Part shown: positions 5,178 to 63,962 of the stretch, piece after piece
Position numbering within the stretch: the first letter of the stretch is position 1
Layout: each line of letters starts with the position of its first letter
Origin: Tubulanus polymorphus
Taxonomy: Eukaryota; Animalia; Nemertea
DNA length: 64,000 bases
Reading direction: 5' to 3'
NCBI RefSeq assembly: GCF_964204645.1
Contig: NC_134030.1
Location: forward strand, 16,244,110 to 16,308,109
Position numbers and translations under genes: made by a program
Notes under the pieces: model-generated
Told to the model about the DNA's origin: nothing
Seen by the model: the letters and a program-made list of their open reading frames with translations, nothing else
Database searches by the model: none

Positions 5178-5216
5178 TTATTATACATATTTTTATTAAA
5201 ATTGAATTAAAGCCGA

Positions 5217-20410: not shown

Positions 20411-20417
20411 TCTCCTT

Positions 20418-22585: not shown

Positions 22586-22587
22586 CG

Positions 22588-25500: not shown

Positions 25501-26293
25501 GTTAAATGTCGAATAATAAAATTTTGGGCCAAGCTTTTAAACAGCAACAAACTGTCCTCTGACATGTATCATATATTACTCAAATCGCATGAAAATGGCA
25601 ATTCGAACCCCTGGATATCCTTTGTCCGCACAACCTTAGAAACAAATGGTCTTGGGAACTTGTGGCACGACCAGACACCCCCTAATCCTGATTACGCAGC
25701 ACACAGCCTTTCTTTGCGACTGAGGGACCAATACGTTCAAAACTGGGATAACCAATGTAAGATTTCTAATATTGCCGACTCGTATAGAATTTTTAAAACT
25801 GAATGGGGCTCTGAAAACTATTTATCTGAATTACCTGATCATCTAAGGATATCATTTTGTAGATTCCGATGTTGCAACCACCCCCTCTCAATAGAAAAAG
25901 GGAGATATAATCGTATACCCCGAGCAGACAGGCTGTGTACTAAGTGCGATATGGGAGTTGTATGTGATGAATTTCACTTTATATTTATTTGTCCTTTTTT
26001 CAATGACCAGCGCAAGAAGTATGTCAATCAATATTATATAAACAACCCTACATCGCATAAATTTAAAGAGTTATTTTGTACAACTGGCGTGAAATTAAAA
26101 AACCTCATTTTATATATACAGAAATGTTTAAGATACTTTGTTACCTAAGTGCATAAATGCCAGATAATGCACTTTTTGCATACATATGCCCACCAATTGT
26201 ATGTACTGTCAATTTTCATTGTCTGTAATTTGTATAATGTATTTTGTAACTGGCTTTTGCTCTTCGCAAATTTGTAAATTTTGTGAGCAATAA

Positions 26294-26326
<33 letters not shown>

Positions 26327-29300: not shown

Positions 29301-30255
29301 GTTTGACCACGGATTCTTCGTTTTTGAGTCCATGGTTTTGGCTCTGGTTTTATCGTGAGTTTGATTAACGTACATTGTAGAGAACAATGGTGGGGATTCC
29401 AATAACGTGCAGCTTTTATTCAGAAAGAGTATCATTACGTATATACATATAGAAATTAATACAATAACTTTAATCAGAATTATCTCATCACGCAGAACCA
29501 GTGAAATAGCCGTTGTAAAGCCGCAAAGTAAATTGAATGAAATTGACATAATGTCAACATCTTACAGTCAACAAATAAAACATATTGTACAATAATGAAC
29601 GAATCAATGAGTAGTGTTCACGCATTTGTTTCCATTTCATAAGAATCAATTCCAAACAGATGAATCAGATTCGAATTTTTGCTTCTTCGTTATGCGAAGT
29701 TTTTTTTTTTATATCAGGGACTCTTTAACGATTAAGGTTTTAGAGTCCATTGTTTTATGAATATCTTATGATTTCTCAACTTACATCAAATACTTAGGAA
29801 TGCCATTGAAAGATTTTCAAACCATTGAACGTTTGGGTAAAAAGTTCTGCTAAATTTGATTACCATCGGCTTTTTAGATAATCTCCACGAAGGTCACAAT
29901 TTTAGTGATTTGACCTTGGGAGGTTTAAACCTCCCGAATCCAATTTGCGAAATATCGGTCCTCTTTGTCGGCGGTAATGAAAGAATACATAGAGCGAAGT
30001 TTCTATTATGCGCCGGCCGCATTTTGTCCACGAATAGCTTACGTAATAAATTGAAAGTCGAGATCACAGGCGGATATAGCGCTCTATGGCCCAGGCTCAA
30101 TTCATAAACTGGTCCGCAAATAAAGTGTTTAGAAGTACAATTGACACGTTTGTACGATTTTGCGCTGTAAATTTATCATTTTTCAGGACTCCAGGACCAG
30201 AAATTGGCAATATTTTTGATACAAACTGAGAAAGATTTCAAAACATTTGGGAACG
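22588..30255. mobile_element. 7.7-kb non-autonomous DNA element with about 400-bp TIRs, splitting BEL pol
   Basis: 22588-22990 is an imperfect reverse complement of 29852-30255 (CGTTCTCAAATGTTTTGA / TCAAAACATTTGGGAACG); BEL coding sequence resumes on both sides. Confidence 0.85.
25254..26342 (+). mobile_element. 5'-truncated non-LTR retrotransposon (RTEX/L2-like 3' end) with (TATC)n tail
   Basis: ORF 25333-26148 with VYGELGRYPL and IEKGRY...RLCTKC...DEFHFIFIC; AATAAA then (TATC)n at 26289-26326. Confidence 0.85.
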
Positions 30256-33200
30256 TCGATTTTAACTCGAATAAGTAAAGAGTCAGACTCCATATCCCAT
30301 AATACGCCAAGAGTACGCTCCATAGGCAGTTGCTCAATATTGAAATCTAAATCTTTTATCGTTTTTGCCCTTTCGGTCTCTGGCACGCTTTCAAGTACCT
30401 GTCGAGAATTCGATGAAATTTGAGTTAACCGAAATCCCCCTTTAGCTAAAATTTCGATCAATTGGCTCAAAAGTCTTACTGCGTCGTGAACAGTCCCGAC
30501 GGATTTCAAACAATCGTCTACATAAAAATTACGCAGAACGGTATCAGTTACAGTAGCATCGAATAATTCTGTGTTGTCCAATGCGCACCTTCGAAGAGCA
30601 AAACTGCTGCAAGAAGGCGAAGATGTTGCACCAAAAAGATGCACGCGCATTTTGTATTCATCTGGATTAGCGTCTAAATTACGATTCGTCCACCATAAAA
30701 ACCGTAAGGCATCGCACAACGACGGCGTCAATCGGACTTGGTGGAACATTCCTTCAATATCCGCAATAAAGGCTATTCTTTCTTGCCTGAATCTTGTCAA
30801 AACTCCAAGCAGGGAGTTCGTCAAGTCCGGGCCTTGAAGAAGATGATCGTTCAACGAGAATTCCAAATATTTCGATGAACAATTAAACACGACTCTGATT
30901 TTCTTTTTTGTAGGGTGATATACATTGTGATGTGGTAGGTACCAGACCATACCGTCGTCTCGATCTAAGTCAATTGTAGGAACTTTCTCACAGAATCCAG
31001 ATTTTATCATGTCATCAAGGAAATCGGCATATTCTTTCAACAACTTGGGGTCGCTGAGAAAACGTTTTTTCAAACTTTTCAAACGATGTAAAGCGATGTT
31101 AGAGTGACGGATGATTCCATAATCTCTAAAGCCCGTTTGTCTTCTTGAGACATGCATTTAGTATCATCCGAAATTCGATCATTGAATTTTAAGTCGCAAT
31201 ATAGCTGAAATTGTCTCGTCAGTTCGCTGTCGCGTCTATCTTCGTTTCTTTTTATGCTAAAGGCCATTTTGTTGGTTACACATGTACTCCCACCAAGAGG
31301 ACCATTGACAGCCCACCCAAATATAGTTTTGACAGCGTGGGGCCCTCCGTTGGTGCTACTTATGACCTCTAAGGGCTCCAACACGTGATGATTGTCATTA
31401 CCTACGATTAGCCCAACGTAAGCATTGACGTCAGCTAAAACAACACCGCTTAAATACGAGTATCCGTTTAAATCGGACTGTCTGGGAATGTCTTTCTCAG
31501 ACATAGGCAAAGAAGGTCTCGAAAATACATTTGTCAATTCCGTATTTCATGTTCCATCTAAGTCCGATACTTTCAAGTCAGTTACGTAAGATTGAGTCAG
31601 ATTGTCAGCCTCTGTCGAAGTTGATAACGATAGGTTAGTTTGACGCAAGTCACTGTAAATAAATCCTAAATCTTTTATCAGATTTTCTTTGCAGAATGTA
31701 GAGGTGCTGCCGGTATCTAACAAGGCGTATGTAATAAATTCGAATCCACCACAACCCTTGATTTTCACTGGCACTATTGGCAAACCTATGCGACGTGTAA
31801 TATTTTGTTTAACGCACTGGTTGGTTGCAGATAAACTTTGCCCATTATCTGTCACATTGCCAGTTGCCGTCGATGGCTGTGGTGAATTACGATTAACGTG
31901 GTGAATCATTCCTCCGTAAGCCGATTCATACAAGGTACAGAACTACTATTGACAACGTTTGGCGACAAAGTGTATCTGTGCAATAGCGTGTTGTGTCGAC
32001 TGTGACATACTTCGCAGAATTCCCTACTTTGACATTGCTGCTCGATATGGTTTTGACCTAAACATAAAAAACATAACCGCTTCTGCTTCAATACCTTAAC
32101 CCTCTGGTCATATGAGTACCCTCTGAATTTGTAGCAGTTTTTACAAACAATGATTACTAACTGAACACAATTGACAAACCGTAGAACTGGGTGTTCTAAC
32201 AGTATCGAGATTAACTCGTTGATTTTGATTACGATTCATACATTGATTATACGAGCTGATAGCAAAATTACGCTGGCCCAACTGACCGACTGGATTATTA
32301 GGTTTTCGATAATCGCCTTTGGATAAAGAGCTTTGACCACTTAAATCGGATATTTTATAACCATCGGAAAGCTTACCGAAAACCGGATGATTTAACACTC
32401 TAGCATCCGATTGAACAAAATTAGAAATATCGTCAAGTCGAATTTCGCGATCATTAAACGTAGTGATATAATCTGCTTTGACATGCCATTTTTTACGCAA
32501 ATCATAAGGGAGTCTAGCTATAATTCGGCGCAGATTATCTGGGTTTTCAACCTTACTTAAGTAGCCTATTTCACCCAAAGTATTCTTACAACTTATAAGT
32601 TTCATAGAGTAATTATGGAGAGCTTGACCATCTTCTGATTTTATCACCGGGCCTTCAATTAAATTATCAACAAGTACTGATGCAATTATATAATTGTTAC
32701 CGTAGTGTTCTTTCAACAAACGCTTCGCCTCTGAGTACCAGATGTCTGGTGGTTGCTCCATGCAGCTTCGCACTAACTCTTTCACCTCACCGCGCGTATA
32801 TTGCATTAGATAATACAGCCTTTGGCTACTGCAATCGGTTTTACTTTCGATTATATTTTCAAAAGCTTTTACGAAATAGCAATATTCAATCGGATCACCG
32901 CCGAAAATTGGCACTTCCTGTTGTGGTAAAGCCATTCGTTTTAGACTTTTTACCATCGCAGCAAGATCACTATCACTATTGCCTGTTGACGCAGCTACGG
33001 AATCCGAAACCACAGGACTTTGAACTTTGGTTGCCTTTTCTAGCAACTCGCGATACTTTTTCTCTTCCCGATCGAAATACATATATGAATTTTCAATGTC
33101 ATCATCTTCGATATACAGACAATGAACGGCGTCGTGCGCGTTTTCGAACTTTTCCCACGATTGTGTAACGTCGTCGATTAATTTCTTTACATCATCATAC

Positions 33201-33334
33201 GGTAGCCCTTCTTTTAACGCCTTCCGAAGGATGTTGCTTCTTTTTGTGACGTTGGCCTTGAAACCCGCTCTCGATTTAACCTTCTCGTCAAGTGATGCCA
33301 TCTCCCACGTCATAAACAGTGTTGCAAATGACAA
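30256..33334 (-). pseudogene. gag-pol: BEL/Pao gag, protease and reverse transcriptase (5' part), with stops and frameshifts
   Basis: FGGDPIEY gag motif, CFLCLGQNHIEQQC and CEVCHSRHNTLLH knuckles, ALLDTGS protease, WYLPHH, LLQGPDL, ADIEGMFHQ, HLFGATSSP, FYVDD. Confidence 0.95.
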
Positions 33335-33443
33335 ACGAAGTCAGTAGATACTTCTCATTGATGCGTTTATTTTCAAATTACGACGACAAAAACAAACGAC
33401 GAATATAACACGTTTCTACAAAAACAAATATTATAAGGGTAGG

Positions 33444-35545: not shown

Positions 35546-36578
35546 TAGAAAGAAAGGTTATATTTGCAAGCTTACATCAAGGCTAATGCAGTTCTGTGAC
35601 ACTAAACCAGATCAATAATATATGTATGGGCTATTTGCAGCGAAAGAGCCACATTGCACTTTACCCGATGAAAGTAGAAGTGTGACCTCGTAAGATAAGC
35701 GGGACTTAAATTTCAAAAGTGGGTCAGTTACTAGTCCCGGCCGACCCTCCCCCCCCCCCCACCCGACGTAACACCCCAAATGTGGCACAGCCGTAGGCTT
35801 ATATGGTATGCTTTACTTACTATGGTGCATACATTCCCAGCAAGCGTCGAGTGTAGCGTTCCACATCAGTTACCACAATGAGGACGTACTCAACTTTTTG
35901 TTGAAGAAAAAACGTACTAAAAAGAATTATTTCGTTTTAACGAGGCAATAAAACGAAAAAGTTCATTTTATCGCGCGATAAAACGACTTTTTCTCGTTTT
36001 ATTGGGCAATAAAACGACTTTTTCTTGTATTATCGCGGAAATTTTCGTTTTATCGCGCTATTTTTCGTTTTAACGTGGCAATAAAACGAAAAAGTTCGTT
36101 TTATCGCGCGATAAAACGACTTTTTTTTGTTTTATCGCTGTAATTTCTCGTTTTAACGTGGTAATTTTCGTTTTATCGCGCAATAAAACGACTTTTAAGC
36201 GTCCGCAAAAAAAAATTTGTAACGTTTGTGATTTTTTTATTACATGGCCCGAATCAGCCACCATATGAAAGGCATCATCAATGTCATAGACATTAAATTG
36301 GGACTTGCCTCGAGCCACCGTGGTTGTGAACGGTTTAGTAATATACATACTGATATATCATAATAAAATTTCTCAACAAACAATTATATCATAATTGAAT
36401 CTTTTTTCAGTATACTAACAATTTTAATGGACTTTCAGCTAGCTGTAGGGTGAGGTTAGACTAGAGCGAGTGGACTCTCTTTGTTTTAGTTAATTTATGT
36501 GGATTCCAGCGGCAGTGCGCCGTCCATGTTGGTACCAGTGATTCACTAATGCGCAATCTATGAAGATAAAAGCACGTT

Positions 36579-40250: not shown

Positions 40251-40644
40251 AATGGCCTCACACTGTATGCTTGTAATTTTGTATTCATTTGTGCTGCGAC
40301 GCTTTAACCGGTGATATATTACATACGAGGAGTACTAATCATAACGGACCGGCGAAATAGTGTTGATTAAAGCAAAATGTCGAACTAACCACAGAAATGT
40401 TAATGAAATAACGAAGCTTTAATCCGCTCTCGAAGAAAAGTTAATATTAAGCCAGAATGACGAATTACACGCTGACGATTAAAGTGAGGTCGATTAAGCG
40501 AGACAATCCATCAAAGCGTGATCAAATCCTCCTAATAGGAACGACTAGCGAAACACGAAGGCATTCGCCGTTGCAAGGAAGTTAGTTTTGGCTAGAAATA
40601 CCAGAACGGCTGGAGAAGTTAGCAAATTGGAAAATCATACATAC

Positions 40645-40836
40645 CTAAAAGATGTGCGGGAATCTGACCAGTTTGTGGAAAACTCTCCTCACCGTATTTT
40701 TTTGTGAGTCTATACCGAACGTAAGCATGTAGATTTTTATAAAAAGGTTGAAGTTGCCTGAATAAATTTCCAATGTCAGTTTCAAATGTTTTTGATTCGT
40801 AAGATTGTCTCCATTCATCTCCAGTGTCTTCGAAAC
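40645..40836 (-). CDS. Ace: ACE-family exon 5
   Basis: GFEDTGDEWRQSYE...FYKNLHAYVRYRL...GQIPAHLLG; 192 nt; read in a different frame from the listed ORF 40645..40905. Confidence 0.96.
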   Translation of the reverse strand, partial: VSKTLEMNGDNLTNQKHLKLTLEIYSGNFNLFIKIYMLTFGIDSQKNTVRRVFHKLVRFPHIF

Positions 40837-42129
40837 CTTAAATATAACACAAACTCGTAAATCAAGAATAATTATTTGCTTTGTTTCGATGTAATGAAAT
40901 TCCATGAATTACTACTGAATATACCTTTTAATTGGACAGACTTGTATAGCTGATAAGAAAAATTGCAAAATTTTCCATCAGCAGAGGAACCAAAATAACA
41001 AATATATATATTGTATATATGTTGTAGAGAAGAATTGCATTTACTTTTTTTTATTAAACCCTTGTTATTTGAAGCCATAGTTTTCTTCTTTTTCTATATG
41101 TGCAAATTATACTAATGTTTTACATACCATACAAACAAAATATTCGGCTTATTGAATACATATGCTGATTCGGTCACATAGTGACTTTTTTAGAGTACAT
41201 AAAAAAGCATGTCTTCATGAGATTTGATATTTTTCAATTACAAAATTGATTGTTTCTTTCTTTTGTCAGTGTTGATTTTCATATTTTTAGAAGCCAGATT
41301 TATAATCTTTTACTTCACTTTCAGTAACCGGAGTACAGCTGGCCCATTTTTAATCCGTGTACCGGTTATCGTTTATCTAGTGACGACATGGTAGTTAATA
41401 GTTGATGCTGAGACTATAGACATTGAATCGAATCTAATCAGCTTTCAGGAGGAATTTAATAGACGCATTACCACAATCGACCTGCCTTGAGATATAAACA
41501 AATGCTCTGAGAAGCGGATTTAACTTCTGCAGAAATCGACCTGCCCTGAGAAGCGATTTTAGCTTAATAGGGTCAATATTACAAGATGGAGCTATTTTAA
41601 ACACAAAGCCCTAAACTAGTGACTAAAACGGAGTGGCAAACTAATTGGTAAATACACTAAACCAACCCCAGCCAACATGACCGAAGCCATGACAACGGAC
41701 ACGCGGCCGACGGCAAGAGAAATGAAATACGCAATTAAATAAATAAATGAGGACGCAATTAAGTTACCGACTTTAAGGTTTTAACGGTTTCACAAAAAGA
41801 ATTTTTTATAGTAAAAGTTATCGTGAATAATATTTCTTCTGCTAATTCAAGACATTTTTGATAAAACGAGCGTGTGGATTGTAGCCTACGCGCGACCCGC
41901 TCCGTAACGCGCATTATCTATTACTGATACATACACGGTGATCGCCGCGTATATAAGGCGATATTGCCTACGGGACTGTAATGTTATCGACGCGCGCTCT
42001 CATCACTGTGCCGCAAACTAGATAAACATAATCGGGCTCTAAAAACGGATCGCTGACGCGAAAGTCCAAAAGAATTAATGACGATAAATCATTTTACTAG
42101 TAATAGTAAGATAGTTTTCTGCGTTGCTC

Positions 42130-43277: not shown

Positions 43278-43670
43278 TTATTAGAATTTTTTTTATTAAA
43301 ATTGATATTTTCATCAACTCGTTAATTAAAATTAAATTTGAGTTAAATTTGATCAATTTACTCGTTAATTACTCGTTAGTTTTTTAATTGATATATATAA
43401 TTATTTCTCTATATTTGGGCTTATTAATCTAAATTATTTTAGTCACACTTTATTCACACTTTTTATGTTAAAAATTGATTTTAATTCTAACAACTCGTTA
43501 ATAACTCGTTATTTTTTATCACACTTTTTATGTTTGCACTTTACTCACACTTTTTATGTTTAAAATTGATTTTTTAATCATTCGAAATCTATATTTATCT
43601 AGATTATTATGCTAACATTTTACTCGCACTTTTAATATATGGAATTATTAGAGTAATTGTATATATAGGG

Positions 43671-44730
43671 TAGAATGATTACCACACTCAAACGTGGTGA
43701 ACGGATTATAAGATAAAATCCCACTATTTACAGATTAAAAGAATTTAAAAACCGGAATTTATTTATTAAATCTAAAATATACAATAGACACGACGTTTCG
43801 ACTTCACCCTAGAGATCATCGTCAGGTGTGAGAAATAGACTAAAAACAGGGGTATATATACAGAGGAGAACAGGTTAATTGAGTAAATTGGTGAGTGAGT
43901 AAATAATTAGTGTTTGGCAAGGCATGAAGTAATATACATTCTTATAATAGTAATATACATAACACTTCTTTTCGTTTACTGCCAAATCAATCATAATCGG
44001 TCTCGCTCAACGCCTCTTTCTCCGTGCACTACGGATCTGCGATGAAACCTTCCTTTCGGCTGAATTTGACCATATATCCAACTCTCTTAGAAAATTGGCT
44101 TACCCTGATCACATTTTGAAAATCGCTATTTCTAAGGCTAAACGTACTTTCTTCAATTCTAAACCTCCAGAAAATAAAAAACACATTTCAGAGTTCATTG
44201 TAGTTCCGTATGTACCTGTTTTGAAAAAGTTTCGTCACTCTCTCCCTTTATTGGATAAACAAATCATTTTCACGTATGAAAACAAAATTAGTAAGACTTT
44301 GGTTAAAAACAATCAATCTAAACCTTTGGACTGCGGAGTTAACAAAATTCCTTGTTTTGGCTGTGATAAAATTTACTTTGGAGAAACTGGTCGTGATTTA
44401 AAAACTCGAATTTCGGAACACAAAAATGATATAATAAATCAAAAACCTGCTAGTGGCGTAGCCAATCACGTTTGGAACACTGGTCATCGTTTTAATTTTG
44501 ATAAAGCCGAAATTATTTATACTTCCAGCAATTACACTAAACGCCACATAGTTGAGTCTGCCCTAATTACTCGTCACTCAGATATTAGTACCAATTTAAA
44601 TAATGGCTTTTCTCCTGACGATGATCTCTAGGGTGAAGTCGAAACGTCGTGTCTTTTATATATTTTAGATTTAATAAATAAATTCTGGGTTTTAAATTCT
44701 TTTAATCTGTAAATAGTTGGATTTTATCTT
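43671..44730 (+). mobile_element. Truncated Penelope-like retroelement (RT tail and GIY-YIG endonuclease) with inverted pseudo-LTRs and 15-bp TSD
   Basis: GVNKIPCFGCDKIYFGETGRDLKTRISEH; 43710-43826 is inverted at 44613-44730; ATTGTATATATAGGG duplicated at 43656-43670 and 44731-44745. Confidence 0.92.
44613..44655 (+). ncRNA. Hammerhead-ribozyme-like core in the Penelope pseudo-LTR (inverted copy at about 43786-43826)
   Basis: CTGACGA...GAAAC core; minimal hammerheads are known from Penelope pseudo-LTRs; fold not verified. Confidence 0.55.
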
Positions 44731-44989
44731 ATTGTATATATAGGGGTTCAGATTAAAGGTTGAAAGGTTGAGTGAGTAAAAATGAAAAATAAATTCGAGC
44801 GTGCGAGAACTTATTTTTCATTTTTTATGAGCTCGACTTTTCGAACTTTGATCTGAACCCCTATATATACAATTCCTAAAGACCACAGGCAAGTACCTAG
44901 GATGATGTAGCGCGTGTATGGAAAGTCATATTGGAAATCACATCAGGGAAGAATGGATGACGCCATCCATTTCAAGATCGTCTCGGAAA

Positions 44990-47699: not shown

Positions 47700-48888
47700 G
47701 TTGTAAAAATGCAACCATCTTATCACAACTAAAATCAAAAAACTTTGGATGATTTGGGAAAAAACAGAAACAAAATTAACTCCAAATAATGGAGCTTTAA
47801 ATGATATCACCACAATAATTGAATATCATCTTTAATGTAAACATCAATGAGAAATATTAATAGCATCCAGGAAACGTAAAGATTTCATTGGTAATAACTT
47901 AACTCATAATGAATTAGATAAAATGAAACCAGACCAAATTATTAAATTACTCTAGATTTATGAAACTGCGAGAATTGCGAGAATTAATGACGCGATATCA
48001 GAAAATGTAGTAACAGGTTATTCTAAATTATGCAATTACTTGCTCCCAATTGATGATAAAAATGGATTATATTCCGATTTAAAAAATTATCATAAAGCAA
48101 TGACTGAATTAAATAAATGGATTGGATATTTATAATTTCGATTAGGTGGATTTATGACATTATTATCAACGGGAGTTTACAAACGTTGAAAGTAAAAATT
48201 TTGCTTTAATAGATGATCGAAGTAGAAGTGAAAGAAATCTGTGAGGGAAAAACCGAGAACAGAGAAACAAATCGAATGGTCTCGGCAATTATAAATTAAA
48301 TCTAAAGAGTTTAGAAAAGCAAAAAAGGAAAACATAAGTAAATTAAATAGTGAAAATATCAGAGATGAAACTCGGATAAAAAGCAGCAGTTGTTGAGCGA
48401 TTAAATAAAACAGTAAGAACACGAATGTGGGAATATTCTATTTCATCTTATTTACTGATTTTTTTATATTCATTCAACAATTTCTGAATCATGATGACTA
48501 TCTTCATTTTTAACCATGATAAACTATTTTAAATCCTTCTAAATCTTTTAATTCAACCTTATTCAATATAACCCATTTATCAGGTAGAAGTACCCTAAAT
48601 TCACGTGTTGTGTTTTACACTACAATAACTGAGATGAGCCGTTATTTTTTCACGATATTTAGTTTTTAATATCTATTTTTTTTTCTAATTTCATTATTTT
48701 ATGTTCAATTTTTTGTGAAACATCGACTAATTTTTATATTTTATATTCTTACTTCGATGGTTTTATTCCGTTATTTATCGATGCTAAGAAGGTCTTTCCG
48801 TCTTCCATTTAAAAGGAAAAAAAATTACGGAGTGCGGACGACTTGCCCCCTCGTCCCCTGGTATGAAACCCACATATTTCAGTTACTA
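47700..48888 (+). mobile_element. Derivative D of the virus-like element, in ACE intron 1
   Basis: 47790-48350 is a decayed paralogue of the genes at 63023 and 63612 (ELDKMKPDQII, RINDAIS, YSKLCN, RTEKQIEW); ends in a single arm CTGGTATGAAACCCACATATTTCAGTTACT like the left end of B. Confidence 0.7.
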
Positions 48889-50148
48889 ATATAGGGGAGA
48901 TTAGTTGAGGAGAGAGCTTAGTTTGGGATATGACGTTGAGGTCGGAATTAGGGTCGACAGTTAGTATCTAATGCCTCTACAACTTCGATAAGTTTAGCTT
49001 CGAGGAATCGCATCAATAAGATCGTCTTTGAATCGTGGATTACGAGTTATATGTTACTTTAAACTGGATGACAGTGCGTGAAGTTATCAACGAAACGGGC
49101 CAAACGGATAAGGAAGCAAAGCAGACTTTCAACCACGTCGCCTTTTCCACATACTATCAAACCAATATATCATATATATTCGAGTTTAGTTATTATCGAA
49201 AAAAAATATTCTTTTACAGGTATACGGGTAGGACCTACGAATAAGATAATGATAAGAATTCTTATGAATTGGCTTTGTAGTAAAAGGAGTCTTATATAGG
49301 CTTTTGTGAACATCTTCTCGGAAACAGCAAGGAAACTAACGATAATAATAATACTATCAATAATAATTATGCAGAGGAAATCAAAAGGGTTTTGTGTGAA
49401 AAACAACAGAAGAAACCATCATTAAGGAAAGTACGAAGTCAAATAGAATAACAGCCATAATAATTCGCTGAAATTTTTACCACTTTCGGCGAAATAGTAG
49501 CTGTTTTGCATCCATCGTCGAAAAGCAGGAAGTTTACAACAACATTGATTTCGCTATAGTGAAAGTCCATTAGATGTCTATAAAATTCCATTTTTATTCG
49601 ATGTAACTTGAATAAAGCAACATTTCATTTTGGAAAAAACGTTTTCGAAGTTATGCACGGGCGTCGCACGTATTGTTCGTATGCGTTAATATTACGCATG
49701 CGAGTTTACAAAAAAGCATTACGCGCGCAAACAATGCCCAAACAATACATGACCTCAAATAGCAATGATCGACCTGTTTAGAAATTTATGCTGCATGCGC
49801 TCAGTGCCAATAACGAATAACGCTTTGTTTCTTCACGTTCAATATCCCTCCATTTGAAGGAGTTACTCGACAGTTCATATAACCCTGAGCAAAATTTTCT
49901 AACATTTATGATTTGGCTTCCTCAATATAACTCTACATTTAACTAATAGAAATCGGCAATAAATCCTCGAATAAACGCAGTTCATTCCTCAATACTTCAC
50001 GTAATGTCCATTCAATGTGCGTATGCATATATGAATGATGCAGATAGTAAGTACCGTTTACTAAGTACTATACGAACCCGAAAAGCCAAACGCCGACTCT
50101 TTACGCTAATATCACTGTAATGTCCTTATTCTTATGTTACATACAAAC

Positions 50149-50337
50149 CTTTATTTTGCTATTAGCTTCGGTCAAGTTGGTAGTGTAATTCCAGGCTGCA
50201 TCAACTATATTGAAGTTTATTCTCTCAGCTTGGTCATCGTAACGATTCAGCCAAGTTGAAGCTTTTGTCTCATTATGCATATTCAGCTCCGCCGCCACCG
50301 CAGTTATTGCTGGCAGAATAAGAAAAACAATCATCAT
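50149..50337 (-). CDS. Ace: ACE-family peptidase M2, coding exon 1 (signal peptide and start of catalytic domain)
   Basis: MMIVFLILPAITAVAA signal-like N-terminus followed by ...AAWNYTTNLTEANSKIK; GTTTGT donor; 189 nt, phase 0. Confidence 0.88.
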
Positions 50338-51377
50338 GTTCTTCCGGGCTTGACTGGTAGAAGTAATCTAAAGAAAGTACCTTAATAGACCGATTTAAGA
50401 ATAGAGGTCTAGGGTTACACTGTGACACACATTCTTGTATCAATCGTCTGATAAGCAGAACACTTGGATACGTTATCCACTTATAATGGCCTGCAGAATG
50501 TTAGATAAATATTCAATCCGTACCCTACTGAGCTATTTTCCGTTCGAAAACTGCACTAACTTGAAAGCTAAGGTGGAGTCTCCAACATTTATATCAACTG
50601 AGAAACAGGTATCAAGCAGATGCATCCTAATACCCCAGCTCACGCAGTGAAGTCGATTATTTGTTTCTTATTCTATTACTTATCGAATATGAAGTATTCT
50701 CAGTAAATATGCGTCTATCTTTTCTAAAAACCAGAAGGAATCTTTCTATGTAGTCGGGTTAATATCAGCAATTTCAGCGCAATTAGATGGTCATCAATCG
50801 AGATGCGGACATTTAGACCTAATTCTACTCATAAGTTCGAAATGAATTGTACAGCAGTTCAGAAATATTCGATAATAGTTTGTAACTTCAAAACATCAAT
50901 TCATACAGCATCAGAACAGACACTGATAGTTTGCGCTGAATTCATAGACGAAAGAGGGAGCAGGTCGATCAATTCATTTTAATAGGCGGCACCTAAAAAA
51001 ACTTTTCGCATAATTTTTTTTTGTTTTCAAAAAATTAAGAAAAGTCTTTTTAAAATTTAACATATTTTTATTTTATTTAACTTTTTTTGTAAAAAAAAAC
51101 AAAAAGTGAATGAAATAATTAGCATTAAAAATGCGAAATATGCTCTAAGAGTACGTACTGTACATGACTCGTGCAAAGATTTTTGTCAATATTTGAGTTA
51201 GGAAGTTTCGAGCTATAAAATACAATGAGATGAGCATAAATAGTACAAAATTACATTTAAGACTTTAAGATTAAGAGGTTCAAATAAGTTGTTTATTGCA
51301 AACCTTATGATCTTAGAGAATATTGCAATCATCTATACTGCTTTTTAAATACTGTCAGATGGGTTGACTCTGGCCAG

Positions 51378-51696: not shown

Positions 51697-51820
51697 TCAG
51701 ATCTGATATTCAAAGTGTAGTGTTGCGTTTATTAGCACAAAATTGCAATATAGCGATCCTGAAGTTCGATTGACGACAAACAATGAATATGTATTTGATG
51801 TATTTATTTGACGAGAGCAT

Positions 51821-51974
51821 GAGTAATAGGGAATATGTTGTTCTAGATCAAAGGTCGAAAGGTCGAGTGAGTAAAAAATGAAAAATAAATTCTCGCACAC
51901 TCGAATTTATTTTTCATTTTCTACTCACTCAACCTCTCAACCTTTAATCTAGAACAACATATTCCCTATTACTC
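51821..51974. repeat. Terminal hairpin of element E (154 bp)
   Basis: GAGTAATAGGGAATATGTTGTTCTAGAT ... ATCTAGAACAACATATTCCCTATTACTC. Confidence 0.96.
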
Positions 51975-52032
51975 TTAAAATATTAATCTAATATCTTCTA
52001 AAATCAGTTTTAATAAAAAATTTGATATTAAA

Positions 52033-52386
52033 ATGGAGAGTAAACAAGTACACAGTGAGAACAACAAATCATTTCTAGATAGAATTAAAGATATCACTAA
52101 TGTAAAATCTGTAGATTATAAATTCAAAAAGTTAACAGAATTAACAATTCATAAGAAATATCTAATTACAAATATTGATATAGTTACTAACAAATATGGA
52201 GATAAATTAGTTATCCACTTAGAATATGAAGGATTAAAAGGAAATACATATAAATTCATAACATATTTACCAGATAGATTTCATAGATTATCAAGTGAAG
52301 ATTTAGAATAATTATGTTCAGGTGATTTCTATTTCATATATAAAGGTAAGAATGAAAAAGGGCACCATGAAATAGATTTTGAATAG
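52033..52386 (+). pseudogene. SSB-like small protein (one internal stop), paralogue of 4824-5177
   Basis: Near-identical translation to the copy A gene. Confidence 0.55.
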
Positions 52387-52426
52387 AATATGTAAAATCA
52401 ATTTTAATAAAAAATTTAGTATTAAA

Positions 52427-55400
52427 ATGGAAGCAAATAAGTACTACTGTTTAACATGTAAAATTGATATGGATAAATCTCAAAAAGCAAGACACAATAA
52501 AACTAAATCACACTTAGAGAATAAATTGAAATTAGAATATAAAGATGATATATTAGAAACTAAATTAGATGAAGTAAAGAATGAAAAAGAAATATATAAA
52601 TGTGACGCGTGTAATCAATCATTCAGTGATAAAAGATATTCTAAAGAACATTTTAAATCTAAAAGTCATATTAGAAATATCAATAATGATATTTTAGGTG
52701 AAGAATATTTTGATAATGATAATGATAAGAAACAGAAGACGATTAAAAGAATTTAAAAAGAAATAAAATAAACAATAAAAGGCCATACATGGAAGATGTT
52801 AGAAATTATATTAATTCACTGGATAATAAAAAAGAAATAGAGATAAATGAAGCAATTAAAAGTGATATTGGGCCAGCTGCTATAGAGTTTAAATTTCATA
52901 AAGGTAAAAAATTAGAAGAAATTAAAAAAACATTTAGAAAATATGAAAAATATTATAAGAATGATTACTGATGTTGAATACCCTAAAATTAGTATATCTT
53001 CTAAAGTTAAATTTATAAAATCTGAAGATAAACCAATATATAATATAAATTCCCACTCACAACATATTATTTCAAAACAACATATAGATGATAAATCAGA
53101 TAAATGTTATAATGTAATAAAAAGTAAAATAGAAGAGAAATATTTTGAACGGTCTGGTTTAATTGTTGATGAAATAATATTTATGACTTTACATGTTTAT
53201 AACACAAAATATAATAAGTTTACTAAATCAAAACCAATTGATGAAAATAATTTATCATATCATTATAAAGATGATAATATTAATGGATCAAGTTATATCA
53301 AATTACCATTTAAAACTAATGCTGTTATAAATGTACAAAATTCTGATGATAAATGCTTTCTATGGTCAATAATTAGTTGCTTACATCCTGCAACTGGTAA
53401 TATTTGTAGAGTATCAAATTATAAACCATTTGAAAATAATTATAAGATAGACAATTATCCTGTTAGAATTAAAAATATCCCAAAAATAGAAAGAGATAAT
53501 AATATAAAGATAAATGTGTTTGATTTAGTCAAATTGCCAAAAACAAAAGGTAATAATATCAAACATTATACAATCGAACCTCTAAACTTATCAAAAGATT
53601 ATGATTCAAATGATGTTATAGATATATTATATTATGAAAATCATTATATGTGGATAAAACGTATTGATTTATTTTTCAAATCAGAAAATGATTTTAATAA
53701 TAAAATATATCTATGTAGAAAATGTATAACTAAATTCAGAACCGAAAGTGCATTATTAAATCATAAACAATTATGTGAAAATCATGATTATTGTAAAATA
53801 GTTTTACCAAATGAAAGGGATAAAGTATTGGAATTCAAAAAATATGATTACAAGAATAAAGTACCATTTGTTATATATGGAGATTTTGAATCATTAAACA
53901 AAGAATTAACTGATCAAGATAGAAAAGGAATATATCATAAAAGAAAGGAATTAAATTCTAATGAAAATGATATAATTGATTATTCAGATCCTCTAATAAA
54001 AAATACTATTAAAAAGATTCATCAATCAGCTGCAGCTTTCGGGTTATGTATAAAATCTGATTATCCAGAACTAATTAAAAGTGAATATTATAATTATTGA
54101 AATGAAAATGTTATCAATCATTTTTGTGTCCTATTAATTGAGTATGAAATCAAATTTAGTAAACTATTAGATACAAATATAGAAATAATTATGACAGAAG
54201 ATAAAGAAGAATTTGAGTTTGCAGATAAATGTTATTATTGTGAAAAGATATTTAATTATAAAGATAAAAAAGTAAGAGACCATGATCATTTGAATGGAAA
54301 GTTTAGAGGCGCGGCGCATGAGAATTGTAACTTACAAGCTGAGAAAATCAATTTTGTTCCAGTAATATTTCATAATTTATCAGGATATGATGCTCATTTA
54401 TTCATCAAACAGCTATGTCATGAAATAGAAGAAATCAATAATGAAATAGAAAGATTAAATTCAAATAAATCAAAAGATAAAATACCAACTTATAAATTTA
54501 AAATGTTAGCTAAAACATCTGAGAATTATATATCATTCCAATTTGGGTGTCTAAGATTTATAGATTCATATAGATTTTTAAGCAGTTCATTAGATAATTT
54601 ATCAAAATCATTAGTTGATGATGAATTAAAGACATTAAAACAACACTACCCAAATAATGATGATTTTCAATTAATGAGATATAAAGGCGCAATACCATAT
54701 TCATTTTATAAATCGCATAATGATTTCAATATAACTGAATTATTAAAAGAACAATTCTCTGATGAATTAAAAAATGAATATGTTAACGAATATACATGTG
54801 TATATGATAGTATATAATCGAACATTGAATATTTGGAATCATTTTAAAATAACAAATCATGGACAATTAGTAGATTTATATCTAAAATCAGATGTATTAT
54901 TATTAACTGATATATTTGAAAGGTTTAGAGATGTAAACCTAAAATATTTTAATATTGATCCTTGCCATTGTTATTCATCACCAGGATTAACTTGCGACTG
55001 TGGTTTAAAATTTACAGATATAAAAATGGATTTGTTAACAAATATAGATCAATTATTATTATTTGAAAAATCTATAAAAGGAGGAGTTTCAGGTGTATTA
55101 GGTGATAGATATTTCAATGTAAATGATAATCCTGGATATAAGTTATTATATATAGATGCAAATAATCTTTATGGATGGGCAATGATGGAACCACAACCTT
55201 ATGGAGTATTTGAAATAAGTGAAGTTCTACAACATGAAAATTGATGGGAAGAAAATAATTCTAGATATTGCAGATGATTCAGAGACTGGTTACTTCTTTG
55301 TTGTAGACTTGGAATATCCTGAAGATAAAAAATTTAAATCTAGAAATCTAGCATACTGTCCAGAACATAAAACTGTAAAGCATGAAGAATTATCAAATTA

Positions 55401-56462
55401 TCCAGAAAGAATTAAACCCGAAAATCATATTCATAAAGAAAAGTTAATGGTAACTATAATGATAAATATAATTATGTAGTACATTATAGAATGTTGAAGT
55501 TTTATTTGAATCAAGGATGATTCTAAAAAAGTACATAGATATATTTCATTCAGTCAATCTAAATGGTTAGAAAAATATATAGATTTTAACACCAAACAGA
55601 GAACTAAAGCTAAAATTGATTTTGAGAAAGATTTCTTCAAACTAATGAATAATGCATTCTATGGTAAGACTTGTGAAAATATTAGAAATAGAAATGATAT
55701 TGAGTTAGTTAGTAATGGTAAAAGAATTATACATTTACATACATATCCTAAGTTCATAGGTAACAGAATATTTGATGAAAATTTAGCTGCAGTTAAAATG
55801 AGGAGAACATCTATGAAATTTAATAAACCAATTTATGTTGGAGCTACAGTTTTAGAAATATCAAAGTTATTAATGTATGAATTCTATTATAACGTATTAC
55901 AACCTCATTTTTGGAGAAAAGCATATTTTGATACTGACAGTTACATATTAAAGATAAAAACTAATAACATAACTGATGATTTAAAAACATTAAAGCATCA
56001 TTTCGATTTTAGTAATTATCCTAAAGATCATGAATTGTTTAACGATGATAATAAAAAGGTGCCTGGTTAATTCAAAGATGAATTTGTGGTGAAGAAATGA
56101 TTGAATTCATTGGTATTAGATCTAAAATGTATAGTTATAAAACTAAAACTCATGAATCAAAGAAATTGAAAGGAATTACTAAAAGTGTAGTAGAAAAAAA
56201 TATTCATTTCAAAGATTACATCAATTGTATATTCAATGAAGAAGTTAGAAAACATAAGATGAGATGTTTAAGATCTGAGTACCACGAGATGTTTATTGAA
56301 GAGATAGAAAAGGTTAGTTTGAACCCATTTGATGATAAAAGATATATTTTAGATGACGGAATTCATACAGTCGCGTATGGTTGCAATTTAGATGAATACT
56401 TAAAATTCAAAAGAGAAGAAACAAAAGAGAATGACATTTTAAAAAGGATTCTAGCGTGTTAA
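52427..56462 (+). pseudogene. polB: Protein-primed DNA polymerase B, disrupted
   Basis: Two C2H2-like fingers, vOTU-like segment, YGDFE and HNLSGYD exonuclease motifs, RDHDHLNGKFRGAAHENCN, DANNLYGWAM, KLMNNAFYGKT, YFDTDS, FDDKRY. Confidence 0.95.
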
Positions 56463-56515: not shown

Positions 56516-59500
56516 ATGGAGCCCGAACAATCACAAACTATCAATATTACAAATAACACTGGTGTTATAAATATTATACTACAAGAAATGTTCTAAATGT
56601 GAATTAGATAAATTAGCTATAACAGAATTTAGTAAGCGTAAGATTAGCAAAGATGGTTTTCAATATTGCTGCAAAACTTGTATTAAACTATATACTAAGC
56701 AATATCGAGCAGATAATAGAGAACATTATAATGATTATATGACAGAATATATGAGAGGAAGATATAAAACAGATCTTAATTTTAAAATGAAACAATGTTA
56801 AAGGTCTAGATTAACACAATTATTCAAAAAAGAAACGCATTCAGAAACACTATCTAATTTGTTGGGTTGTACAGAGGAATTTCTCAAATCATGGATAATA
56901 TATCAATTCGACGATAAAATGAATATAGATAATTATGGTGAATACTTTCATATTGATCATGTGTTGCCGATTTCTAAATTCAAAATTTTATTCATTCTTT
57001 ATTACATATATTAGCAGGGTGAACCTGTTAAAAGTTTTCACTTGTAGCAACAGGTACCCAAATACACACTTCACTCTCACCCACACATTCATACTTTCGC
57101 ATTCACACATGATTTTCTACAGCTACATGCATACAAAAATAGGTATATAATAGTAAGATGATATAGGTACAGTTACATTGTTTGATTAATTCATTGGGGT
57201 TTTTTTCTTAATAATGATTAATAATTACTAATTATGAATTTCTTATAAGCTGACTTAAAGATCTCTAGGGAAGGTGATGATTTGAAAATATTACTCATTT
57301 CATTCCAAAGTTTTGGGCCATTGTAACTAAGGAAATTTCGGCTAAAGTTATTTCGGCATAAGGGTAGTACAAAATAGTTTGTGTGGCGGGTTCTGCGATT
57401 TCTGTTTAACTCGAAGAAGCCATTGAATACATCTGGTAAAAGGTTTGATGCATACATGTACATAAATTGGGCAACTTGTAATTTGTTAACGTCATCTGCT
57501 TTTAGAATATTTGAATCTTTAAATAATGGGCTAGTATATGCTAAGTAGTGGGTTTTAATTATAGTTCTGATTACCTTTTGTTGAAGAAGAACAATCCTAT
57601 TTAAGTTAGTGTGGTGGTTTCCCCACACAATATTACAATAGTATATATGTGGATAAATCATAGTATAGTATAGTTCAATAAGAATCTTCGTGGGCAAGTA
57701 TGTTGCCAGTCTGCGGATGATACCAACATGTTTCGAGATTTTTTGAGAAGTTTGCTGGATATGTGGTTTCCAATTGAGATCCTCGTCAATATATACACCT
57801 TGAAATTTGGAGTAAGGCAGTTTTTTTAAGATGTTACCATTTAAAGAAACATGTAAGTCAGGTTTTTTTTCTAGCTCTGCTGAATATAAGATAATGTGTT
57901 TTTACTAGATTAAGTGATAATTTGTTTGCACAGAACCAGATGAATAGCTTTCCTAATTCTTGATTCACAATATTTTCAAGGATATCAGGGTTTCTACGAC
58001 TAGCAAAAATGTTGGTATCATTCGCAAACATGATAAATCTAAAAATTTCTGAAGCATTTGTACAATCATTTATATAAAGAATGAATAATAAGGGTCCTAG
58101 TATAGAGCCCTGTGGTATTCCACAGCTTATAGTTCTTGGGGTAGAAATACAATCTTTATATTTTACAGACTGCTGCCTATTAGTTAAGTAGTTTTGAAAC
58201 CATAATAGAGCACTTCCTCTAATGCCATAATGTTCTTGTTTGGATAACATAATTTTGTGGTCAATCGTATCAAACGCTTTAGATAAATCTAGAAATAACC
58301 AACTGTTGTTTCTCCTCTAACTAGCGTTTCGATAATCTTATTAGTTATAAAAGTTAATGCCATTGCCGTTGAATGGTTTCGGCGAAATCCAAATTGAGAA
58401 TCACTTAACACTTTGTGTCGATGTAGAAAACGATTGATACGGTTGTACATTATTTTTTCCAGGATTTTTGAAATACAGGGTAGTATAGATATGGGCCTAT
58501 AATTGTTGAATAGTTCTTTATCATCTTTTTTATGTATAGGGATGATAACAGACATTTTCATACTCTCCGGTATTTTTCCGGAGTTTAAGCTACAGTTAAA
58601 AATATGCATTAGAGGAGTTGATATAAGATCAATTACGTTTTTAACGATTTTCTGACTAATATCATCAATTCCGCAGCTATGTTTGGATTTGAAGTTCTTC
58701 ACAATCATTTCGATTTCTTTCGTAGTTACTGGAACTAAAAATGCACTCTCGAAAATTCTGTTGGTTAAAAAAGAATCAAATTTTGTTTCCGTGAAAGGTA
58801 TTTCATTGGCCAAGCATGGACCAACATTTATAAAAAAATTATTAAATCGTTCAGCGATTTCTTGATTATTTGTTAAGAACCCGTCTACATCTTTGAATTT
58901 CTCAGGATATTCATTTTTGGTATTTTGTTTATTCACACAAGAGTTAAAAGTTTTCCAAGTTTGCTTATGATCATTTGCCGATTCCTCGAACTTTCGAATA
59001 TAGTATATTTTTTTTGCTTCTTTCAGACAATTATTGAATTTATTACGGTAATTTTTGTAAAGATAACTAGATGCAGGGGTCTTATTATGGATATATTTCC
59101 TGTACAAATAGTTTTTTTGTTTTAAAGATGCTAGGAGACCTTTAGTCATCCATGGATTTTTCCTGTCTTTATACATATTGAATTTTCTATGCTTAATATT
59201 AAAACAGTCATCATATAGCCGTTTTCAATAAAATTGGTATATGCTAGGTCAGTGTCATTTTGGAGTAATATCCCATGCTAATTTTCTGTCATAAGCCGCC
59301 TTCTAAATAAGTTTGTATTTCTGTCACAATAATTCCTATAGCTGATAAATTTGGGTTTCACATGGGTGATTTTCATATCAATAGTAGTGAATATTGGCAT
59401 GTGATCAGAAATGTCCGACATCAATATGCCTGATTTGCTAGTACAATTAAAGTTTATAAAAATATTATCTAACAGAGTGGAAGACGTACTCGTAATACGA

Positions 59501-61913
59501 GTTGGTTTATCTATAAGGGGACACAATTTTCACTGGAGAGACAAGAAGTAAAATTATTAGCCGGTATATACTTGTCGTTCAAAATGTTTATATTAAAGTC
59601 TCCCATGAGAATCACTCTATCAAAGTTAGATAATTTATCTAAAATGGTAGAAAATTCCTCTACGAACTTATTGATATTCAGATTTGGCGGTCTGTAGAAT
59701 AAACCAATTAGGAAATTTCCTTTTGATCCTGGGCTATATATTTCAATCACGTGAAACTCCATGGACCCAGACTCAATGACTAAATCAGATCTAATTTGAT
59801 AATTAAAGTTGTTCTTCATATAGAAAACTAATCCACCTCCTCTACTATTTTTTCTGCTTTTGAAAAGTGACTTATAACCCTCAAGATAAAACATGCTATC
59901 ATTATCTTATTCTCCACTGGTCCAAGTTTCTGTTAATCCGATTAGGTCGAAACTTGAGTCACAGGCTTTTAATAATAATTGTAATTGGTCAAAATTTTTG
60001 TTAATGCTACTAATATTTGCATGGAATAATTTTAGTCCCTTTCGGGGAACAGTTGAGAAATTAGTAATAGAATAGTAGTTACAGTCGGACTGATTCATGA
60101 AACCAGTTGAAATTTTCTATTTGTAAAGTAACCTCCAGATCATTGTAGCTGTATATACCATTCACATAGCTTATCGAACAAATACATGTATACAGTTGAA
60201 TTGAGATTAAATACAGGATCATAAGATCCTATAATTGTGTTGGTAGCTTAATCTATCTATGCAAGTTGCTAGCTACAAATAAATGCTATTTTGATTAATT
60301 ATATACAAGACTTACTACGTAAATTCGATTTTATAAAAGGACAATTTGAAACGGTATGCAGAGTTGAAGTTTCTCTTTCTTCTGATTTCCCGGCCTAACC
60401 GCATAAACATTACCATTTACAGTCCATACATTAGAAAAAAGTTTACTTTTCACGGCGCAATTTACTAACTGGGAGATTTCGGGGGCTAGGTCTTCTTTTA
60501 TCGTTATTCCTGTGTCTTTGAAAAGTTTTTTGTTGAAGTAGACGTTGTTTCGGATTTCACGGTTGGTGAATCTTATAACCATGCTATCAGCTGATGTTGA
60601 TTTTTGCCTGCTAGGCGCACGATGTGCTATATCGATATCTGCGCATTTGATTTGTACGTCTAAGTTTTTCTCTCTGAATTTATTGTTGATCGTTGACATG
60701 GAGGTTTCCTTACAATTTTCGTTTTCTTTCTGTTCTACTCCAAATAGTCTCAAGTTGTTTCTTCTCGAGTATTGCTAGTTTTACGTTTAATATCCAAGAT
60801 TTCGCGTCTTATTTGTTTTTCGAATTCATCACTTTAGGTTTTCGCGTTTCTAAACGATTCAATTTCCTTCTTTAATATCTTGTTTTCATGTTCGAGATCG
60901 TATAGTCTGGTTTCAGTTTGATGAATCATATTTTCGATTTTTCGATCATGTGCTGCGATTTTCTTATCTATTTTGTCAATCATCTCGTTTTTAAATTCCT
61001 CCAAAGACTTAGTTGTAACCATTTCAGACTTAATGTTAGAGACGACTTGCAAAATCTTTTGTAGGCTTGCTTCATCGGAGATTTCCTCTTCGTCGTCGGT
61101 AGCTGTTGATGTTCGTGGTCGGAATTTTTTAACTCTCGGCTGTGTAGTTTTATTTTTTTCAATCAGTTGCGCAGTTTTTCTACTGTTATCGCTTTCGTTT
61201 CCGTCCATTTGGTTACCGGTAGTTCCATTTTCAGAGATAGTTTGTAAATCCGGTGATTTTTCAGCAAACTGTTTAATCGTAGTTTGGCTCATATTTACTG
61301 ATTAAAAACGGAAATTTGAATCGTTGTAAACCAATATATAATACCGAACATTGAACACAAACCAGTGAGTGGCTGACTTTAGATCATAGCTTATTTCAGT
61401 TGAATTTCAGTTGAATTCAAGATTTGTGATTAGTCTATTCATACACACGGTTCACTTCACAGAAACTGATGGCAGTTTTCTATTCATATTAAAATATCCA
61501 CACAAGTCATGAAGTACACCAAGCCTTGAAGCTATGACTATATATATGAGTATATATATGAGTTTATAACTCTATCATCGAATTTCATACATCTATATCC
61601 AGAACAATCTGACCAACAGTTAGCCAAAAATCACTCGGAAACATTAATCTCGCGACTGGTACAGAAATTAGTTAGGCACAAATTTAGTTGACAGCAAATT
61701 TTGCAGCTTTTGCAGAGATCTATGTAAGGCAACTTGCACCGTCGGCCATGTTAGTTCATGAACATGAATGATGAACACAATCAGAAATTAATCTGGAATT
61801 GGAGAAACTTAAGACCTCTTGAAAAGAAGGAAAATATAAGGAAAGGGGACAAACTTGATACGCAGTTATATTTAGATCAACTGGTTAAAGCAAAGACATT
61901 TGTTGAATTATGA
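56516..61913 (+). pseudogene. HNH endonuclease (large-DNA-virus type) split by a LINE
   Basis: CSKC...CKTC...LLGCTEEFLKSWI.YQF...NYGEYFHIDHVLPISKF (to 56981) joins in frame to NMNDEHNQKLIWNWRNLRPLEKKENIRKG (from 61761). Confidence 0.85.
56984..61760 (-). mobile_element. Near full-length CR1/L2-group LINE (ORF1 and APE-RT ORF2), disrupted
   Basis: ORF1 61292-60331 (coiled coil, DIDIAHR, VIRF, IKEDL); ORF2 about 60180-57218 with [37 protein letters not shown]; AATAAA at the 3' end. Confidence 0.93.
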
Positions 61914-63022: not shown

Positions 63023-63619
63023 ATGTCAAAGAAATCTAATAAGAATAGTATTGATATTGAAAAAACCTTAGATGATTTTGGCATTAGTGATAATAAAGAT
63101 ACAGTTGTTTCTAATTGTATTCAAAATGATAATATTGATTATGAATACTATTTGATGTGTAAGCATCATCTTGAATTACTAATTGCTGGCGGGAAATCTA
63201 AAGAATTCTTGGGAAAAATTGTAACTTATCAAGAACTAGATGCTATGAAGCCAGATAAAGTAATAAAACATTTCAAAATATATGAAGAAGCTAGATTGGC
63301 CCGAATAAATGATTCTATTTCTGATGGTATTATAAAATGTTATTCTAAATTATGTAACCGGATAATACCAATTGAAGATGAAAATAAATTATATAGTGAT
63401 TTGAAAAATGACTATTTAGTTATGACAGAATTACAGAAATGGGTTGGATACGCTTCATTTCAATTAGGTGGAATAATGACATTAATTTCTGCTGGAGCTA
63501 TAACATTTTCTAACATTAAACCTTTAGTATGTAAAGATAATAAATCAGAAGATGGTGCCGTATGGCACCCACACTGTGATATTGAATCAGAACAAAAATT
63601 AACTAAAATAAATGAGTGA
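63023..63619 (+). CDS. Uncharacterised 198-aa element protein with a C-terminal hydrophobic segment
   Basis: Open frame, ATAAATG start, decayed paralogue at about 47790-48180. Confidence 0.7.
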   Translation: MSKKSNKNSIDIEKTLDDFGISDNKDTVVSNCIQNDNIDYEYYLMCKHHLELLIAGGKSKEFLGKIVTYQELDAMKPDKVIKHFKIYEEARLARINDSISDGIIKCYSKLCNRIIPIEDENKLYSDLKNDYLVMTELQKWVGYASFQLGGIMTLISAGAITFSNIKPLVCKDNKSEDGAVWHPHCDIESEQKLTKINE

Positions 63620-63962
63620 TGATATTAAGAAAAAGGCTAGATCTGAGAAACAAATTAAATGGGCTAGGGAATTAGGTAAAAGATCTGCAGAATTAAAAAA
63701 AGCTAAGAAAAAGTAATTAACTGATATAAATGAATCACCTGATATTAATTCAAATAACAATCCATCTGATTCTTCTAATAGTGGAAGAAATAATTACTTA
63801 TATATTACAATTGGGTTAATCGCAGTTATTGTATACTCCGGTGTAATATATAAATCAAAATTTAATAACAATAATGATTCCGATGATAAACCTATTATAC
63901 CAGAAAATAAGTCAAATGATAAAATCATTGAAACTAAATCTGAATTATTATTAATGAATTAA
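63612..63962 (+). pseudogene. Basic N-terminus plus single transmembrane protein (one in-frame stop at 63714)
   Basis: MSDDIKKKARSEKQIKWARELGKRS...*...YLYITIGLIAVIVYSGVIY. Confidence 0.55.

Follow-up and report, generated by a model that had tools for sequence, protein, structure and literature searches.

The window analyzed here, a 64,000-nt stretch of Tubulanus polymorphus DNA, contains four long hairpins, found by a repeat scan and by direct reading at 9273–9388 (copy A), 11405–11556 (copy B), 44731–44875 (copy C), and 51821–51974 (copy E). The hairpins range from 114 to 152 nt, the upper stem being shorter in A, and the stretches adjoining them are AT-rich (21–29% GC). In each copy, the genes point away from the hairpin. 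The tip is carried by the plus strand in A, B, and C and by the minus strand in E, that is, by the non-coding strand in all four. The first-pass annotation had described this tip as conserved, and the tip pattern matched four times in the window and not once in 100 shuffles. It had no match in viral_contigs, and its single match in metagenome_contigs (L025) was set aside as a chance hit inside a bacterial gene.

Copy E starts with the hairpin (51822–51973 inside the terminus, minus strand), a 71-bp stem with a 10-nt tip at 51893–51902, where the non-coding strand has its 3' end. The outer arm (51822–51849, plus strand) is the terminal inverted repeat, beginning with 5'-AGTAAT, and the inner arm (51946–51973, minus strand) is an inverted internal copy of that repeat. 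Further along the plus strand lie a small ORF cassette (51979–52311, no Pfam match), decayed zinc-finger ORF pieces (52376–52971, weak C2H2 matches below cut-off), a decayed pPolB (52916–56462; Endonuclease_7, E = 1.4e-5; DNA_pol_B_2, E = 4.2e-5; motifs aligned to relatives), and a broken ORF (56571–57014, no Pfam match), which from its motif we take to be HNH-like. E is truncated near 56990. The cassette is an approximately 400-bp, one-gene unit that is found between the hairpin and the zinc-finger gene in E (51984–52393) and after pPolB in A (4808–5208); it is absent from the former position in other copies, and 112 reads skip it there (joint 51984–52393). A similar AT-rich motif ends just before the ATG of each gene and may mediate cassette shuffling.

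Copy A (hairpin 9274–9387, plus strand) shares 4 kb with E at 87% DNA identity, a segment that encodes a family B polymerase that is decayed and contains an Endo VII insertion (pPolB of A, 5217–8563, minus strand). A second ORF of A (4111–4809, minus strand) resembles a minor capsid (penton) gene. Its look-alikes in the ESM Atlas scored 0.96–0.98, and in one look-alike cluster 26% of the members carried PF21507 (Sputnik minor capsid), with a recognition score of 2184, below the mark of 2300. No sequence homologue was found at E 0.01, and we treat the assignment as a lead. The third gene of A (1196–2520, minus strand) is a broken member of a 440-aa family that comprises 1727 clusters at E 0.001 and has a C-terminal hydrophobic segment (P0060). 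The family had no Atlas, PDB, or useful Pfam match, and the gene had no relative in viral_contigs and none in genome_contigs with a narrow alignment; a single-sequence structure model of the protein reached a pLDDT of 32. A homologue of this gene on contig L026 adjoins a major-capsid-like gene (Capsid_N-like, E 0.005, below cut-off), which itself had no match in the window. L026 and another Polinton-like contig, L027, lie within bacterial metagenome-assembled genomes, likely as binning contamination. An ENA contig of 16,883 bp carries a homologue of pPolB, and one of equal length, probably identical to it, carries a homologue of the 440-aa gene.

Folding of the E minus strand yielded a single 72-bp stem (−65.3 kcal/mol, z −23), versus −56.3 kcal/mol and five open positions for the plus strand. 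Where E departs from Watson-Crick pairing, the minus strand has G-T in all five cases. It had been proposed that the better-pairing strand is the one whose 3' end is the hairpin, and that this is the non-coding strand in A, C, and E; both points were supported, and the strand is non-coding in B as well. The claim that pairing is kept across copies while the sequence changes was examined by a four-copy alignment, into which the right-hand piece alone of C was entered. Two-sided changes were found at 14 of the 72 stem pairs, versus one to four in slid controls. Ninety-four percent of 257 cells were paired, a level reached by none of 500 shuffles, although for a covariation set of four related copies this shuffle result is not a probability. 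The TTGA/TCGA mismatch said to be common to all copies is a G-T pair at column 36 in four of four. Tip orientation is likewise identical in the four copies, which are too few to decide on flip/flop. We also noted 169 reads with opposite-strand joints that link 51850 to 51963–51964; these could be flop molecules or subfamily variants whose inner arm resembles the outer arm of E.

Two details of the earlier description needed revision. The hairpin of C is present (44731–44873, plus strand, outer end clipped), but its inner arm is not contiguous: the start of the arm (43652–43670, plus strand) is severed by an insertion at 43671–44730 (plus strand), which is Penelope-like, with a 15-nt duplication, inverted 119-nt ends, and a GIY-YIG match below cut-off (E 0.011), and the last bases of the outer end are missing. 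The hairpin coordinates otherwise stood, but reads place the terminus after 9387 in A, one base further in, so that the outermost G-C pair is no constant feature of the element terminus.

Upon alignment of the four copies, the stem was seen to fall into two zones. Within pairs 2–27, a span as long as the terminal repeat, Watson-Crick pairing holds in 98 of the 100 cells that have letters; of the 14 two-sided changes, 13 lie within pairs 8–26. The single lower-stem mismatch of A is private to that copy, since 640 of 653 reads differ from A at that position. By contrast, pairs 28–56 contain 15 G-T cells, one A-C cell, and 10 other mismatches, the shared column-36 wobble included. Counted by column on the non-coding strand, which has the hairpin at its 3' end, G-T pairs occur in nine and A-C pairs in two (p = 0.033 one-sided, 0.065 two-sided, for columns that are not independent of descent). 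This strand bias is modest, and we regard it as weak evidence. The arms were also compared with each other and with the far ends. Within one copy, inner and outer arms are 25–27/28 identical (27/28 in E), whereas outer arms of different copies are 20–24/29 identical, and the outer arm of B is 23/29 identical to B's own far end. The inner-arm versus far-end comparison rests on one element, B.

Two far ends are visible in the window, one belonging to the short copy B (10203–10234, plus strand) and the other, D, to another fragment (48860–48887, minus strand). Each consists of a single terminal repeat, and the outer arm of the hairpins is thus a short terminal inverted repeat of ~28 bp common to both. 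From 10203 and 48887, respectively, the far ends match the first ~28 bp of the B outer arm at 23/29 and 24/29 positions, better than the best match in each of 100 shuffled windows; their identity to the E outer arm is 19–20/29. Neither far end has a hairpin: in B the inward 160 nt fold at −11 kcal/mol, and D folds at −16 kcal/mol, versus −54 to −65 kcal/mol at the hairpins. B, whose hairpin lies at 11406–11555 (plus strand), is the sole copy with both ends seen, and the six-base words that flank it (10197–10202 and 11556–11561) are identical at five of six positions, a likely target duplication. The single-copy flanks of B are mutual inverted images over about 9 bp, as expected if one insertion had entered a small host palindrome. 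An alternative 4-bp duplication with G-A-G ends was dropped in view of the read termini. A second terminal-repeat-like stretch (10164–10202) lies ~39 bp upstream of the B far end and may be a relic of an older end or reflect a target preference.

To place the ends and gauge copy number, we used raw reads (X5, about 12% of the run) of a second sample that bears the same species label. Around E, read depth was about 4–6 in the unique flank, about 730–830 in the body, and about 2500 at the tip; body depth relative to unique-flank depth therefore indicates roughly 100–200 body copies. The depth at the tip is the sum of several subfamilies with different first genes. The host junction of E is spanned by an X1 contig with no differences, and across 51817–51847 the depth rises from about 6 to more than 600. 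At A, depth was 746 on the body side, 701 in the hairpin, and 1–17 in the host DNA beyond. Here 441 of about 650 reads leave after 9387 (...ACT) into mixed flanks (agreement 0.34), and thus 5'-AGT is the family terminus at many host sites, and hairpin and body move together. The far end of B is multi-copy as well, with a depth peak over 10203–10234.

The polymerase points to the identity of the element. A structure model was made on P0002, a natural relative 49% identical to the E piece (36 rows, mean pLDDT 69). Residues 48–174 resemble the Y-family little-finger fold (Z 7.2, rmsd 2.8, 91 aligned), residues 186–299 a viral OTU (Z 8.4, rmsd 2.8, 98 aligned), and the polymerase part phi29 polymerase in its exonuclease (Z 12.1, rmsd 3.4, 158 aligned); Foldseek alone gave no PDB match for the model at E 0.001. 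This order matches the Polinton pPolB layout of terminal protein, vOTU, and polymerase given in the accessible part of PMC11071308. A candidate linking Ser motif is present in 20 of the 31 rows with letters, the E piece included, and in the alignment with relatives the E piece retains the OTU Cys and His. The terminal-protein and vOTU domains of this pPolB thus look intact. The top viral fold match of the polymerase was Drosophila-associated adintovirus 2. Several PolBs filed as bird-associated densovirus/parvoviridae sequences rank just below adintovirus on fold.

Other features agree with a Polinton/Maverick. Kapitonov and Jurka are said to have described Polinton termini as 5'-AG in 2006, and the family end read here is 5'-AGT. 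Terminal inverted repeats are present (about 30 bp, 23/29 identical in B), as is, in one case (B), a likely target duplication at five of six bases, within the Polinton range of 5–8 bp; terminal repeats of Polintons are 100–1500 bp in the text available for 10.1101/2023.08.22.554363. The DNA_pol_B_2 and Endonuclease_7 matches in E are those of a Polinton polymerase. In the visible parts we found no retroviral-like integrase, ATPase, protease, or major capsid gene; A runs off the window with 9.3 kb visible (Polintons, 13–25 kb), and E is truncated. Among 22 frames of the incomplete element, there was also no Pfam match to a parvovirus-type HUH/SF3 Rep/NS1 or single jelly-roll capsid gene. We conclude that the element behaves like a Polinton/Maverick and, judged from its sequence, is probably a member. 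Helentrons combine a subterminal repeat with a hairpin; a Helentron-like reading was dropped, as no Rep/helicase was seen and pPolB is present.

The pPolB has 24 relatives in IMG/VR at 25–43% polymerase identity, and when their 275 ORFs were compared with the window, pPolB alone was matched. When 32 loci were scanned for hairpins, drawn from 26 IMG/VR contigs that carry related pPolBs, none lay at a locus end, a result that says little because most contig ends are not true termini; internal inverted repeats occur in seven of the 26. One distant relative, L003, has a 184-nt palindrome with inner mini-hairpins (4657–4840, z −15), flanked by pPolB and a divergent gene; it may represent an origin or an end-to-end junction.

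What, then, does the hairpin do? By its sequence layout, it is the upstream end of the element, where the ~28-bp terminal repeat and a spacer are followed by an internal copy of the two in inverted orientation. The standing model of Polinton replication needs long matching terminal repeats that pair end to end. The short imperfect repeats of this family could hardly form a long end-to-end panhandle, and therefore the hairpin may stand in for it. Our favored, still tentative reading, to which we would give somewhat less than an even chance, is that fold-back of the 3' end of the non-coding strand re-makes the element end and primes a second strand that is extended by the element polymerase. Protein-primed synthesis from the far end, or single-strand excision from the chromosome, would free the non-coding strand. 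Its 3' end would then anneal to the inner arm via the upper stem, where G-T wobbles would be tolerated, the outermost ~27 nt would be re-synthesized on the inner arm as template, and synthesis would continue into the body as the second strand. A nick where the arm ends, perhaps made by the Endo VII/HNH domain, might open the closed end.

Fold-back priming would account for the zoned stem, with its nearly pure Watson-Crick outer 27 bp and its wobbles lying higher up: only the outer zone would be copied near-perfectly, because only the outer ~27 nt would be re-synthesized, and upper mismatches and tip orientation would be inherited. It is also consistent with the nine-to-two excess of G-T columns on the strand whose 3' end is the hairpin, the lack of a fold at the far ends of B and D, the single tip orientation in four of four, the closer match of arms within one copy than of the B outer arm to its far end, the private nature of the lower-stem mismatch of A, and terminal repeats of about 30 bp rather than 100–1500 bp. 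Priming from a 3' hairpin at the left end of heterotelomeric parvoviruses is a precedent (PMC8242256, in its accessible portion). Several observations weigh on the other side. The pPolB keeps its protein-priming parts (little-finger and OTU folds, Ser, Cys, and His), and therefore another priming route is at hand and self-priming would not be needed. As for the wobble bias, it is weak, and a strand that lies exposed would acquire it through C-to-T decay without selection. The inner versus far comparison comes from B, and no complete element lies in the window. Gene conversion or template switching in a genomic palindrome also homogenizes arms, and neither a fold-back molecule nor a nicking activity has been observed.

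The retained priming domains lend themselves to a second explanation, credible if unlikely, in which the hairpin substitutes locally for the panhandle as a duplex origin for terminal-protein priming, its 3'-OH is not extended, and pairing is kept by selection with occasional repair. The candidate Ser and the OTU Cys/His, by the criteria in the accessible part of PMC11071308, are just what such priming would use; the same strand and the same end would be involved, and no nicking step would be required. Against it, copying accounts more easily than stepwise selection for the 13 two-sided changes of the outer zone, and a general stem repair would be expected to erase the column-36 wobble, yet the wobble is kept in four of four copies.

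Slightly less probable is a double-stranded recognition site, that is, a cruciform or symmetric site for an integrase, a resolvase, or a packaging motor, with template switching or conversion keeping its arms alike. The integration end recurs exactly, in inverted form, as the inner arm, the element ends and the 5/6 six-base duplication point to integrase action, and pPolB contains an Endo VII-type domain. Such a site would leave the lack of a hairpin at the far ends unexplained, and it fails to predict the bias of G-T over A-C because a cruciform extrudes on both strands. A role within a transcript, or as a promoter structure of the first gene, we hold very improbable: in E the hairpin sits no more than about 60 bp from the first ORF, but the coding strand folds worse, with A-C mismatches, and Rfam had no match in the window at gathering scores. 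That an independent MITE landed beside the elements is largely refuted, for although perfect inverted copies of the terminus delimit the hairpin and tip depth (about 2500) exceeds that of any one body, none of the four copies is solo, all four adjoin a body on the inner side with the same polarity, reads join the inner arm to the body, and depth at the A boundary is unbroken (746 versus 701); a minority of solo copies may exist elsewhere.

If fold-back priming holds, a more specific picture, which we consider doubtful, would be an animal Polinton with unlike ends, where protein priming operates at the far end and parvovirus-style self-priming at the gene-proximal end, the stem mismatch distinguishes the arms, and one orientation is resolved. 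Compared with Polinton/Maverick elements (polintoviruses and adintoviruses) that have an HNH-bearing pPolB, the family is alike in its terminal-protein-like D1, vOTU D2, Endo VII/HNH insertion, minor-capsid-like gene, terminal inverted repeats, and likely 6-bp target duplication; it differs in that its repeats are about 30 bp and imperfect and that a 114–152-nt hairpin occurs at the upstream end alone. At the left end of heterotelomeric parvoviruses, in the available text of PMC8242256, the negative strand folds at its 3' end into a 140-nt hairpin that contains a mismatch bubble. The likeness to this end (MVM, HBoV1), as far as that text goes, extends to the length (about 140–150 nt), the 3' end of the non-coding strand, the position upstream of the replication gene, the stem mismatch, and the often single form. 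Unlike parvoviruses, which have hairpins at both termini, the element has a simple stem that lacks Y-shaped ears, shows neither a Rep/NS1 nor a parvoviral capsid gene in its visible parts, is integrated with terminal repeats and a target duplication, and has a hairpin-less far end (−11 to −16 kcal/mol).

Terminal palindromes have been described in Halocafeteria seosinensis virophages and one PLV subtype (subtype 4), for which hairpin-primed replication after excision was proposed; in the part of that preprint available, the palindromes flank long TIRs at the extremities, measure 52 nt in subtype 5, and occur preferentially with non-pPolB replicases (bioRxiv 10.64898/2026.07.28.741278). On this partial account, those elements share with ours a palindrome beside the target duplication of an integrated Polinton-like element, whereas here the host is an animal, pPolB is present, the TIRs are short, the hairpin is at one end among the ends seen, and covariation comes with strand bias. 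Bidnaviruses resemble the element in having a Polinton-derived pPolB, together with a single-stranded DNA stage. Their terminal repeats form no parvovirus-like hairpins in the accessible sections of PMC4061559, and their vOTU is inactivated according to those of PMC11071308, whereas our element has a hairpin and intact Cys/His. The portions available of PMC8502044 (adintovirus), PMC6431247 (giant transposons), PMC2836005 (Ginger), and 10.64898/2026.10.13.758929 (mosaicism) contain no such hairpin end. Overall, our search of open-access literature yielded no account of an animal pPolB Polinton with a hairpin at one end. New here is the one-ended hairpin beside intact-looking protein-priming domains.

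To our knowledge, Polinton replication has been inferred and never observed. A family that is present in many copies and combines short imperfect repeats with a co-evolving hairpin at one end would offer a direct handle on it, for the zoned mismatches predict which strand is single-stranded, which bases are re-made in each cycle, and which intermediates are to be expected. The idea of terminal palindromes, proposed for protist elements mostly without pPolB, would reach an animal element that keeps its protein-priming domains. Dual priming, if true, would make the element a hybrid of two strategies for replicating linear DNA and a model for the passage of pPolB between Polintons and single-stranded DNA viruses. 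Even as a recognition site alone, the hairpin would be a useful end marker for annotating the family.

Several other features of the window were noted. Exon-like frames at 40619–40837 and 50137–50367, which from their motifs we take to resemble angiotensin-converting enzyme, mean that C and D may lie in host introns. Two more element fragments (47700–48400 and 63023–63962) contain homologous genes with 70% DNA identity and no Pfam match. Decayed LTR-retrotransposon-like and LINE-like reading frames occur at 20835–33340 and 57218–61301, the LTR-retrotransposon-like ones being presumably BEL/Pao by their motifs. Lastly, short palindromic units in inverted blocks (19159–20420, 35930–36265, and 18321–18597) are probably the ends of other non-autonomous DNA transposons.
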